From Escherichia phage Eco_BIFF, in sequence record MH285980: DNA of 49,372 nucleotides, one strand, 5' to 3'. Shown one piece after another: positions 29,867 through 48,476 of this stretch. The number at the start of each line of letters is the position of its first letter. Positions within the stretch are counted from its first letter, which is position 1. Position numbers and translations under genes: made by a program. The notes under the pieces are model-generated. The model did no database searches, was not told the origin of the DNA, and worked only from the letters and a program-made list of their open reading frames with translations.

Positions 29867-30114
29867 TGAACGAGAAAATGATTCCTGTTAAGTTAACTGA
29901 TCAAGGTTTATGGCTACTTTATCGAGCTACGTGCTGCGAAATTATGGAGCGAAACGGATTGACTCAGGATGTTATTGGTTGCGATCTGTGGGATTTCACT
30001 AGTTCTCTTGATATGTCTTTCGGTGAGATAAAAAATGAACATATCGAGAATTGGCCTTCAATTATCCAGAAAGACGTAGAGGAACTTAAAGCAGATACGA
30101 TCGTTCAGCACTAA
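29863..30114 (+). CDS. hypothetical protein
   Basis: 83-aa ORF coupled to dam stop; RBS AGGAAAG. Confidence 0.45.
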   Translation: MMNEKMIPVKLTDQGLWLLYRATCCEIMERNGLTQDVIGCDLWDFTSSLDMSFGEIKNEHIENWPSIIQKDVEELKADTIVQH

Positions 30115-44877: not shown

Positions 44878-45081
44878 ATGAAAACTATTACCGGAATGAG
44901 CAACGAAACGAGAACGCAGATCGTTAGCATGCTAATCGGCATGGCTGACGATATTCAGAATAGCCATGTCGTTATTGATTCATGCAATCAGACTCGTGAG
45001 AGTAAATTTGAATCATCCGGCTACAAAATTGTTGAAGAAGAATTAACCATCAAAATCATTCGCGTACAGGAGAAAGCATAA
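44878..45081 (+). CDS. hypothetical early protein
   Basis: 67-aa ORF with RBS AGAGGAA behind cassette 44795..44838. Confidence 0.45.
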   Translation: MKTITGMSNETRTQIVSMLIGMADDIQNSHVVIDSCNQTRESKFESSGYKIVEEELTIKIIRVQEKA

Positions 45082-45611
45082 TGGATAAAATCACAATTTG
45101 GGGTCAGAAAATCAACCTGTTTCTCGGCACGCGCCGCGTAGCAATCTTTGACTTTGACGGGACGCTGAGTGAAGGATCTGGTCGACTTCACCTGTTACCG
45201 ACAAAAGATTTGCACTTGACTGAAAGCTGGTCTGAGTTTAACCGTGCGGCAATATTTGACAACCCTATCCAAAGCACGATCGACGTGATGAACTCTATGT
45301 TTGCCGCTGGATATCATGTAATAATTTTAACCGGGCGAAGTGATGAGGTGCGTTACGCATCTGAGTTATGGCTTAAGCATCACGGCGCTCGATATGATTA
45401 CTTAGTCATGCGACCGCACACCGACAACCGTAAAGACACGGTAATGAAAGAAGAGGCAGTGCGCGCGATCGGCATTGATAACATTCTGGCGGCTTGGGAT
45501 GACTCAGTGAATATAATAAAAAAATTCAGAGAGCTAGGAATAACCACGTATCAGGTTTGTGAATATGCCTGTAATAGTCGAGAGGATTTAAAAAGTCATG
45601 GTGTCGATTGA
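45081..45611 (+). CDS. HAD-superfamily phosphatase
   Basis: HAD motif I FDFDGTL and downstream motifs (ILTGRSD, W-DD); RBS GGAGAAAG. Confidence 0.6.
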   Translation: MDKITIWGQKINLFLGTRRVAIFDFDGTLSEGSGRLHLLPTKDLHLTESWSEFNRAAIFDNPIQSTIDVMNSMFAAGYHVIILTGRSDEVRYASELWLKHHGARYDYLVMRPHTDNRKDTVMKEEAVRAIGIDNILAAWDDSVNIIKKFRELGITTYQVCEYACNSREDLKSHGVD

Positions 45612-46092
45612 TAACAAATCAAGGGTAAGAGAGTTATTTACTTATTCTGACGGCGTTCTGTATTGGAAAGCTAAATCATCTAAATACAGTAGAGCTAAAA
45701 TAGGAGGAGCGGCAGGAAGCAAGGATAAAGACGGATACATAATAATCAGAGTAAGAAGCGAAACTAGAGGCGCTCACAGGCTTGTATGGATATACCATAA
45801 TGGTAAGATACCGAATGGAATGGAGGTAGACCATATGGATGGAGACATAAAAAACAATAGAATAGAAAACCTAAGATTGGTAACGAGAACCATAAATAAC
45901 AGGAATCAAAAAAAGAGATTTGATAACACAACCGGAGTATCCGGTGTAACTTTCATGAAAGATAGAGGAAAGTATAGGGCGCAAGTTAGAAATAAGAAAC
46001 TCGGGCAATTCGACACAATAGAAGAGGCCGCTCAAGCCGTAAATTATGAGCGTGATAGATTAGGTTTATTCACAAAAAGACACGGAGTATAA
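45598..46092 (+). CDS. HNH homing endonuclease (HNH + AP2-like domain)
   Basis: EVDHMDGDIKNNRIENLRLVTR motif plus AP2-like GKYRAQVRNKKLGQF; AGA/ATA-rich codons; paralogue of 36018..36503. Confidence 0.7.
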   Translation: MVSIDNKSRVRELFTYSDGVLYWKAKSSKYSRAKIGGAAGSKDKDGYIIIRVRSETRGAHRLVWIYHNGKIPNGMEVDHMDGDIKNNRIENLRLVTRTINNRNQKKRFDNTTGVSGVTFMKDRGKYRAQVRNKKLGQFDTIEEAAQAVNYERDRLGLFTKRHGV

Positions 46093-46094
46093 AC

Positions 46095-46667
46095 ATGAAA
46101 ACAGCTATCATTTTAAACGGAGCACCTGGCGCAGGAAAAGACACTATCGGATGCATCCTGGCTGACACTTACGATCATGTAGCGCTACGCAGCTTCAAAG
46201 CGCCAATGTTTGAGATTGCCAGAGCAATCCTGGGTGAGGCTAATTTCGAGTATTTCATGTTCTTGTATGAGGACCGTCGCTATAAAGAAGAGCCAGCATC
46301 AATCCTGAACGGTAAAAGCCCGCGCCAGTTTATGATCTGGATTAGCGAGGAAGTCATCAAGCCGCAGTTCGGAAATCGCTTCTTCGGTATGCGAGCGGAA
46401 AGCAAGGTGAAAGAGTCGCACTCCCTTTCGGTATTTACTGATGGTGGATTCAAAGACGAAATCTTGCAGATGATTGAAGGTGATATCCAAGTCAAGCTAT
46501 GTCGAATACATCGCAACGGTTGCAACTTCGATAATGACAGTCGAGACTATATCTACCTGGACGATATGATCGGGGTTAACGGCTATCAGGAGTGTGACTT
46601 CTTCTCTGTCGAAGGTCATCCAGAAATTACCGCTCATCACATAGCCGCCACGTTCATCAATAAATAG
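46095..46667 (+). CDS. P-loop nucleotide kinase (dNMP-kinase-like)
   Basis: Walker A GAPGAGKDT at N-terminus, 190 aa; RBS GGAG; stop TAG inside element 46664..46683. Confidence 0.55.
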   Translation: MKTAIILNGAPGAGKDTIGCILADTYDHVALRSFKAPMFEIARAILGEANFEYFMFLYEDRRYKEEPASILNGKSPRQFMIWISEEVIKPQFGNRFFGMRAESKVKESHSLSVFTDGGFKDEILQMIEGDIQVKLCRIHRNGCNFDNDSRDYIYLDDMIGVNGYQECDFFSVEGHPEITAHHIAATFINK

Positions 46668-46707
46668 CACGAATTGCTAAAACGTCGGTGGGGTGATTTG
46701 ATATAGT
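46664..46707 (+). promoter_or_regulatory. promoter cassette (-10 TGATATAGT)
   Basis: ATAGCACGAATTGCTAAAAC + 18 bp + TATAGT; 26 nt before ATG 46740. Confidence 0.55.
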
Positions 46708-46739
46708 TACCTCATCGACAACGAAGAGAGAAAATCGAA

Positions 46740-47520: not shown

Positions 47521-47723
47521 TGGCTAATTTACCGAAGAAAGGCGATCAGGTTCGATGTGTCACATCACGAAATGGCGATGCTTTCTCAGCCGGGTGCGCG
47601 TACGACGTTGAAAAAGTCAGTAAGTCAAAGAGGCTTGTATTCGTGTACGGCGATGATGGAAACCTGCATGAGATTGATTACCCGCAGGATATGACTAAGG
47701 GACAATTCGAAATTAATGATTGA
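47520..47723 (+). CDS. hypothetical early protein
   Basis: 67-aa ORF overlapping upstream stop; its stop TGA lies in the -35 TTGACC of the next promoter. Confidence 0.45.
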   Translation: MANLPKKGDQVRCVTSRNGDAFSAGCAYDVEKVSKSKRLVFVYGDDGNLHEIDYPQDMTKGQFEIND

Positions 47724-47749
47724 CCTAAGTCCCTGAGCGGTGATAGTAT
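47720..47749 (+). promoter_or_regulatory. sigma70-type promoter with extended -10
   Basis: TTGACC, 18-bp spacer, TGaTAGTAT; followed by ~130-nt structured leader before ATG 47888. Confidence 0.55.
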
Positions 47750-47887
47750 TAATCCCGTAGACAGACGAGGCGCAATTAGGCGCAACGCGTGAGACGATTC
47801 TCACTCTTCCAGCTAACAAGCTCGGTTGCATAGTGGTTAAGCAACGCCGCAGACCCGTAAGCGGCAACAATTCAAGAGGATTGCATA

Positions 47888-48049
47888 ATGCAAAACACTA
47901 AAGACGAATCAATCAAAATTGAAATTAAAGTAACTCGCAACGGTGAAACCACTCGTTATAAAAAACGATTAAATCCTGGCGAGGCTGTTATTGGTCGCAT
48001 TGCTGGCGTTATGATTAAGGCGCAGGAAGATGAAGCGATTCAAAGTTAA
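47888..48049 (+). CDS. small hypothetical protein (53 aa)
   Basis: RBS AAGAGG 8 nt before ATG 47888; behind sigma70 promoter 47720..47749 and a ~130-nt leader. Confidence 0.4.
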   Translation: MQNTKDESIKIEIKVTRNGETTRYKKRLNPGEAVIGRIAGVMIKAQEDEAIQS

Positions 48050-48443: not shown

Positions 48444-48452
48444 TAAATACTA

Positions 48453-48476
48453 ACCCGCTTCGGCGGGTTTTTTTAT
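48453..48476 (+). terminator. intrinsic terminator before terminase promoter region
   Basis: CCCGCTTCGGCGGG then T7. Confidence 0.6.

Follow-up and report, generated by a model that had tools for sequence, protein, structure and literature searches.

Genes for a predicted Pnkp-type phosphatase and gp1-like kinase, a conserved phage gene pair, flank a putative homing endonuclease gene in Escherichia phage Eco_BIFF

In the genome of Escherichia phage Eco_BIFF (sequence record MH285980), the genes of a HAD-type phosphatase and of a P-loop kinase lie on either side of an HNH endonuclease gene, which raises the question whether the two enzymes are parts of a polynucleotide kinase-phosphatase (Pnkp) such as that of phage T4, whether they serve nucleotide metabolism instead, and what the endonuclease gene has done to them. 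We analysed the whole stretch of 49,372 nucleotides, hereafter the window, which is a circularly permuted T1-like genome (Tunavirus) with about 94% identity to phage T1 (91–95% over most of its length). The initial annotation had described the phosphatase and kinase genes as separate and as flanking the HNH gene, and three open reading frames (ORFs) on the same strand confirm this (Table 1). The 3' end of the phosphatase gene overlaps the 5' end of the HNH gene by 14 nt, and the kinase gene starts 2 nt past the HNH stop codon. The products match phrog_415 (phosphatase, 1.5e-64), phrog_99 (HNH, 9e-57) and phrog_139 (kinase, 1.3e-45) in the PHROG collection. The arrangement as such is already known: it is the annotated early-operon trio CPTT1_014, CPTT1_015 and CPTT1_016 of phage T1 (GenBank AY216660), which has the same gene order, lengths (531, 495 and 573 nt) and overlaps as the trio in the window, at about 94–96% nucleotide identity. 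The T1 record labels the three genes 'polynucleotide kinase' (by HHpred to T4 5UJ0), 'HNH endonuclease' and 'deoxynucleotide kinase' (by HHpred to T4 DNK). A study of phage KanT1 from 2026 (PMC13164509) shows PNK, HNH and dNMP (deoxynucleoside monophosphate) kinase on its T1 map in Fig. 3, and suggests that both enzymes extend the replication module through better nucleotide supply.

Judged from its sequence, the HAD protein is of the DxDxT type and homologous to the 3'-phosphatase domain of T4 Pnkp, and it stands alone. In the Pfam search it scored 62.8 bits for HAD_PNKP (PF25109), where the cut-off is 27.6 (E 5e-17), over profile positions 3–139 of 143, and its fold is nearest to solved Pnkp phosphatase domains. 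Its key residues are D24 and D26 (nucleophile and acid-base), R35, T84-G-R86, R111, D119, K123 and D140-D141. The alignment with T4 Pnkp spans the entire phosphatase domain of the latter and equates T4 residues D165, D167, T169 and R176 with D24, D26, T28 and R35, residues S211, R213, D254 and K258 with T84, R86, D119 and K123, and residues D277 and D278 with D140 and D141. These residues of T4 PseT (1LTQ, 5UJ0), which together with bacterial Pnkp1 (4XRP) is among the closest known systems, are conserved, S211 in the form of a threonine. Catalytic roles have been described for D165, D167, S211, K258 and D278 of T4 Pnkp, the phosphatase of which accepts 3'-dTMP in addition to RNA and DNA ends (PMC3592404). 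Two further positions were compared across the HAD family, where T4 R246 corresponds to an invariant arginine (R111) and T4 R279 to an invariant serine (S142). In T4 Pnkp, R246 reportedly holds the penultimate phosphodiester of a polynucleotide, and R279 is said to have been proposed to do likewise.

Unlike T4 Pnkp, in which a kinase domain of the Pnk clade is fused upstream of the phosphatase, the HAD protein of the window carries no kinase domain, nor does any of the 120 closest homologs listed; its partner kinase is encoded downstream and belongs to another clade. The common label 'polynucleotide kinase' is a misnomer, because the protein is phosphatase-only and matches just the phosphatase domain of T4 Pnkp (5UJ0). 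Its orthologs appear in public records under the names 'polynucleotide kinase', '3'-phosphatase, 5'-polynucleotide kinase', 'kinase', 'putative morphogenetic protein' and 'acid phosphatase'. The HAD family shares an invariant insert of about 16 residues past motif I (RLHLLPT.DLHLTESW.EFN), which is missing from T4. Its C-terminus and the spacer that follows are hypervariable: many homologs end at a conserved ...SHGVD/E, and others have CxxC tails or an extension of about 60 aa. In the alleles that lack the HNH gene (LeonhardEuler, L003, 1910–2098, and the equivalent part of Shigella phage phiL, L002), the HAD protein has a tail of 27 aa with the Cys/His pattern EVCNHEP...CIKCKELLK, possibly a zinc ribbon, and a hydrophobic ORF of 36 aa comes next. 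In phiL, a TGA replaces the glycine codon of DFDGT (DFD*T) at window position ~45150–45160, and the deposited annotation of the gene begins downstream of this codon; it marks either a pseudogene or a sequencing error.

The kinase is predicted to be a divergent member of the T4 gp1 / T5 Dnk superfamily of dNMP kinases, in which T5 Dnk is a biochemically characterised enzyme, and it lies outside the Pnk kinase clade. We based this assignment on fold and on profile-profile comparison, because Pfam and NCBIfam searches of the kinase returned nothing over threshold. The Pfam family DNMK (PF21448) did not match the window kinase and matched two of 37 members of its family weakly (best E 0.0026), searches of PDB sequences with phmmer and profile hmmsearch gave generic P-loop matches only, and nothing past the N-terminus could be learned from a global pairwise alignment with T4 gp1. 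With hhalign, the kinase aligned with the T4 gp1-family alignment over 146 columns (98.0%, E 2.4e-13) and with T5 Dnk at 96.3%, the latter also being found by pairwise BLASTP (3e-7), whereas the alignment with T4 PseT was limited to the 25 columns of the P-loop. The nearest fold is that of T4 gp1 (1DEK), and the viral structural neighbours are in almost all cases annotated as dNMP kinases. The motifs of the kinase are GKDT, SFKAPMFEIA, SPRQFMIWISE, TDGGF and R140...D148-S-R150. Several features are of the gp1 type, namely the unusual GKD-T P-loop, the SxRxxM helix (R77, equivalent to T4 R132), the hhhhD...E segment (D116 and E122, equivalent to D175 and E181) and the R-x-G...D-S/T lid, at an identity to T4 gp1 and T5 Dnk of just 12–17%; the position of T4 R177 and a gp1 insert, described below, set the kinase apart.

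The initial annotation had likened the two proteins to Pnkp and had offered a nucleotidase with a dNMP kinase as the alternative. The alternative suits the kinase better, which is of the dNMP-kinase type and not of the Pnk clade, but the result named there as refuting the likeness to Pnkp is only half present, because the phosphatase is of the Pnkp type (PF25109) and not a classical nucleotidase. HAD_PNKP and HNH_3 were far over their cut-offs, whereas the kinase stayed below the Pfam threshold and was placed by hhalign; fold comparison set the phosphatase beside Pnkp phosphatase domains and the kinase beside 1DEK.

Public records name the kinase 'hypothetical', 'P-loop NTPase', 'ATP-binding protein' or 'replication factor C large subunit'. 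A homolog of 518 aa in Escherichia phage JEP1 (BFVD A0A7S6HV70) is annotated with a DOD-type homing endonuclease domain, and its gene appears to host an intein or LAGLIDADG element.

The two enzymes are linked by more than their position in T1-like phages, as the HAD gene followed by the kinase gene is an old, conserved and co-transcribed pair, frequently with translational coupling (ATGA). We surveyed 80 IMG/VR loci with kinase relatives of 42–99% identity, many of which are closely related to each other and not independent. A HAD gene was found 5' of the kinase gene and on the same strand in 71 loci, with no deviation in order or strand (71/71). The two genes abut or overlap, mostly as ATGA, in 30 of these; they are 6–250 nt apart in 13, 251–600 nt in three and 0.7–2.1 kb in 25, the longest gaps holding small unrelated ORFs. 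Seven of the 80 loci have adequate upstream flank and a kinase gene without a HAD gene. The kinase family is widespread in phages (1428 phage records), and our search of 1.8 billion representative proteins gave 4,811 kinase clusters at 50% identity. Among the best 150 of these clusters are two fusions, P0218 with 403 aa and P0228 with 461 aa. In both, an N-terminal HAD_PNKP domain of the subfamily found in the window is joined, through a linker motif that the two have in common, to a C-terminal domain of the kinase family found in the window. Three contigs, which come from at least two samples and represent a 60-kb phage, encode P0218 in identical form. The P0218 gene adjoins that of an SbcD-like DNA repair exonuclease, in agreement with the remark that the pair often follows such an exonuclease in other Drexlerviridae (PMC13164509). 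An IMG/VR search found no relatives of P0218, and such fusions are therefore rare. Conserved as a pair, often overlapping and fused in rare phages, the HAD phosphatase and the kinase probably work together.

As to what they do together, on balance we lean towards nucleotide salvage, that is, a role in the deoxynucleotide economy of the phage. Breakdown products with a 3'-phosphate (3'-dNMP, pNp and 3'-phosphorylated oligonucleotide ends) would lose it to the Pnkp-type phosphatase and would then enter the 5'-dNMP pool or become open to further digestion, and the kinase would convert dNMP to the diphosphate (dNDP). Phages T1 and TLS break down host DNA and recycle the nucleotides (PMC11447400), and neither has a DNA polymerase of its own according to the same study and the T1 annotation. 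Among the homologs of the kinase are two dNMP kinases that have been characterised. A relative with 41% identity is encoded in a cluster with an exonuclease, an NT5C-like HAD protein, ThyX and ribonucleotide reductase (RNR) in L093–L095, and a dCTP deaminase is encoded near a relative in L096. A 3'-phosphatase followed by a dNMP kinase would be coherent and would avoid a futile cycle, because the homologous phosphatase of T4 takes 3'-mononucleotides.

Several points weigh against a salvage role. If both enzymes acted on the same mononucleotides, the result would be a futile cycle, except where they differ in position specificity. The nearest characterised relatives of the HAD protein are all polynucleotide end-healing enzymes, the equivalent of T4 R246 is invariant in its family, and the fusion of a phosphatase with a kinase is a hallmark of end healing; one kinase relative, in L097, is encoded between a metallophosphoesterase and an ATP-dependent DNA ligase. 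In the kinase, the arginine that is invariant in the gp1 family (T4 R177) is replaced by a glycine (G118) that is itself invariant among its relatives, a gp1 insert of about 45 residues is absent, and the acceptor may be other than dNMP. Because of its nonsense codon, phiL would moreover indicate, if that codon is real, that the phosphatase is dispensable at least in the laboratory. Our literature search returned no functional study of the T1 phosphatase or kinase and no link of either to tRNA repair or to defence.

Much of this evidence would also suit a two-component, sometimes fused analogue of Pnkp, which we consider rather unlikely. The HAD protein would clear 3'-phosphate or 2',3'-cyclic phosphate and the kinase would phosphorylate 5'-OH ends, after which a host ligase would seal the healed DNA or RNA ends, countering host nucleases or repairing phage DNA. 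The full catalytic set of a Pnkp-type phosphatase, with the R246 equivalent conserved, argues for this explanation, as does the position of the P0218 gene beside a DNA repair exonuclease gene. Mammalian PNKP has the phosphatase before the kinase, and the Pnkp of Clostridium thermocellum is composed of kinase, metallophosphoesterase and ligase modules. The fusions P0218 and P0228 share the domain order of mammalian PNKP, and the genes in L097 recall the module set of the C. thermocellum enzyme and the modular swapping of phosphatases among Pnkp enzymes; in both cases the likeness is of architecture only and the kinase clade differs. L097 is a short metagenomic contig in which a metallophosphoesterase (phrog_221), the gp1-like kinase P0231, with an N-terminal extension of 60 aa, and an ATP-dependent DNA ligase (phrog_114) are encoded as a tight triad (101–2833), a possible heal-and-seal module.

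Repair of tRNA in the manner of T4 is opposed by the clade of the kinase, which is the wrong one, and by the lack of a sealing partner. The T4 system includes an RNA ligase, whereas no ligase is annotated in T1 (record positions 2569–48836) and tblastn of T4 RnlA against the window gave E > 1, a search that a very divergent ligase could escape. The window-specific segments examined (38.5–43 kb) contain no ORF of at least 250 aa.

The conserved, sometimes fused pair thus poses a biochemical question, mononucleotide salvage versus nucleic-acid end healing, and the answer bears on the recycling of host DNA by polymerase-less phages such as T1. With the trio itself known from T1, the residual novelty lies in the association of a Pnkp-type phosphatase with a gp1-like kinase as a conserved, occasionally fused functional pair. 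We tentatively raise the possibility, doubtful as it is at present, that this pair is a previously unrecognised, widespread two-protein phage system, acting either as a non-canonical Pnkp, in which a kinase drawn from the dNMP-kinase fold would phosphorylate 5'-OH ends of polynucleotides, or in a dedicated salvage route from 3'-nucleotides and pNp to dNDP.

It is improbable that the HAD protein and the kinase are independent and adjacent only by inherited synteny in a crowded early operon. The 25 of 80 loci with 0.7–2.1 kb of unrelated small ORFs between the genes and the seven loci with a kinase alone would fit such independence, as would the separate positions of the TLS counterparts, gp09 and gp14, and the presence of both enzyme types at unlinked loci of T4. 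Against it stand the invariant order and strand in all 71 paired loci, the abutting or overlapping stop and start codons in 30 of them, the two distinct natural fusions with their conserved linker, and another lineage in which a kinase relative directly precedes a HAD protein of a different, NT5C-like family. In that lineage (L093–L095, 4012–10609; kinase relative P0072), the gene order is DNA polymerase exonuclease subunit, kinase, NT5C-like HAD protein, ThyX and RNR, with a spacer of 3 nt between the kinase and HAD genes. The large RNR subunit contains an intein with LAGLIDADG, and an insertion is possible in ThyX of L094 too, which has 629 aa.

A role in counter-defence, by restoring depleted dNTPs or by phosphorylating or dephosphorylating an immune messenger, seems to us very improbable. 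The accessory early region, the seemingly dispensable HAD gene (the phiL nonsense codon) and the very wide distribution of the kinase family in phages would agree with such a role, whereas the literature search connected neither gene with defence.

Returning to the trio in the window, the HNH gene is predicted to encode a selfish, mobile endonuclease of the homing type. Its product matched HNH_3 in Pfam with 77.2 bits against a cut-off of 24.8 (E 7e-22; 45 of 46 profile positions), the catalytic core is intact (D78-H79, N87 and N100), and the tail gave a weak match to an AP2-like DNA-binding domain (E 9e-4). Comparison with phiL and LeonhardEuler, which lack the gene, delimits a cassette. The window and T1 are highly identical to these phages up to position ~45506; a tract of about 105 nt follows that still encodes the C-terminus of the HAD protein at about 60% nucleotide identity to the HNH-less relatives, then the HNH gene, and homology resumes from the kinase start. 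In place of the cassette, the HNH-less genomes have the native 3' end of the HAD gene with the Cys-rich tail of 27 aa and an ORF for a hydrophobic membrane protein of 36 aa. The recoded tract has a GC content of 0.34 and the HNH gene one of 0.38, as compared with 0.48 for the remainder of the HAD gene and 0.46 for the kinase gene. Besides the window, only T1 and JMPW2 carry close copies of the cassette (6 of 121 matching phage records and 2 of 80 IMG/VR loci), the flanks of which are 91–94% identical. One HNH-less locus, L091, retains the first 24 nt of the cassette-type tract before continuing as HNH-less sequence; this chimeric allele indicates a recombination breakpoint within the tract. 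Together, these features match the signatures expected of a free-standing homing endonuclease with a co-conversion tract.

The cassette would have landed in the variable spacer between the HAD and kinase genes, where a foreign, synonymous-like version would have replaced the last part of the HAD gene, the conserved HAD core being kept. The ribosome-binding site of the kinase (GGAG) lies inside the final HNH codons. The HNH gene probably adds nothing to the function of the pair, because it landed in the spacer, left the HAD core intact and supplies the ribosome-binding site of the kinase. We also considered whether the HNH gene truncates the HAD protein abnormally and rejected this, as many homologs likewise stop at ...SHGVD/E. 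That the insertion split a single ancestral phosphatase-kinase gene is hardly credible, for although some phages have fused genes and the cassette overwrites the HAD 3' end, that same terminus is the end point of many homologs, in every HNH-less tunavirus and other member of the Drexlerviridae examined the two genes are separate, each with a stop and a start codon of its own, and the cassette is confined to T1, JMPW2 and the window. The earlier description of a pair 'split by HNH' thus holds for the position of the HNH gene between two genes and not for the division of one.

The HNH gene between partner genes has parallels in other phages: in T5, the HNH gene hegH lies between nrdB and nrdA (L100, 10392–14599). 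Sporadic presence, foreign composition and changed flanking coding sequence are common to such endonucleases and to the HNH gene of the window, in which the cassette has taken the place of a variable spacer together with the end of the gene upstream, no gene is split and homing is putative. In T4, mobE is reportedly located between nrdA and nrdB, and mobE of Aeh1 is said to split nrdA. The locus offers a clean natural HNH cassette with a co-conversion tract and recombinant alleles, usable for the study of homing in Drexlerviridae. The idea that the spacer is a general hotspot for homing endonucleases was dropped: the ORFs in the gaps of other Drexlerviridae are not endonucleases, and the small ORFs in their gaps of 0.7–2.1 kb had no evident homology. 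The tunaviruses L091 (4764–5240) and L092 (2462–2938), in which no HNH gene separates the HAD and kinase genes, have a distinct HNH_3 gene, with a product of 158 aa, about 1.1 kb 3' of the kinase gene, at a position that is an intergenic gap of 165 bp in the window (~47723–47888). In Shigella phage vB_SsoS_008 (L045, 5180–6570), the catalytic motifs of the HAD protein are destroyed (TGR to ELR, DD to SI), fragments of the HNH gene alternate with the small ORF known from the HNH-less allele, and several stop codons interrupt the kinase gene. This locus reflects either decay or the assembly of a mixed population with and without the HNH gene, and as the latter is possible we set it aside as a case of a decaying HNH gene and kept it out of the evidence.

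Table 1. Features of the HAD-HNH-kinase locus and its flanks, with positions in the window
Feature	Position	Strand	Details and basis
Upstream motif copy: ATAGCACnAATTGCTAAAAC, then a short hairpin with -10-like TAGAAT in the loop	44803-44840	+	Motif scan
67-aa ORF	44878-45081	+	ORF list; stop overlaps HAD start (TAATG), translationally coupled
HAD phosphatase gene	45081-45611	+	176 aa; FDFDGTL at residues 23-29; ORF list
AT-rich cassette of 586 bp, putatively mobile	45507-46092		Recoded last ~35 HAD codons plus HNH gene
HNH endonuclease gene, free-standing	45598-46092	+	164 aa; ORF list, HNH_3, phrog_99 and annotation of T1 CPTT1_015
P-loop kinase gene, predicted T4 gp1 / T5 Dnk superfamily	46095-46667	+	190 aa; GAPGAGKDT at residues 9-17
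Downstream motif copy: same promoter-like/stem-loop motif	46672-46715	+	Motif scan

Scans for promoter and terminator consensus sequences between 43.8 and 48.6 kb gave matches at chance level, except for a terminator on the + strand at 48452–48469. The block composed of the 67-aa ORF and the HAD, HNH and kinase genes is bracketed by two copies of a repeated intergenic motif, ATAGCAC(G/T)AATTGCTAAAAC, which is followed by a short inverted repeat with a -10-like TATAGT or TAGAAT in the loop. Copies on the + strand of the window start at 30113, 42480, 44283, 44803 and 46672, and the core motif occurs five times with at most one mismatch, versus 0.43 expected. The motif resembles the PeSL cassettes of T4-type phages, which combine a promoter with a stem-loop, and its upstream copy is a probable early promoter or stem-loop element heading the block. 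The 67-aa ORF just 5' of the HAD gene corresponds to an indel of 202–204 bp: the window and Shigella phage phiL have this segment, T1 and LeonhardEuler lack it.

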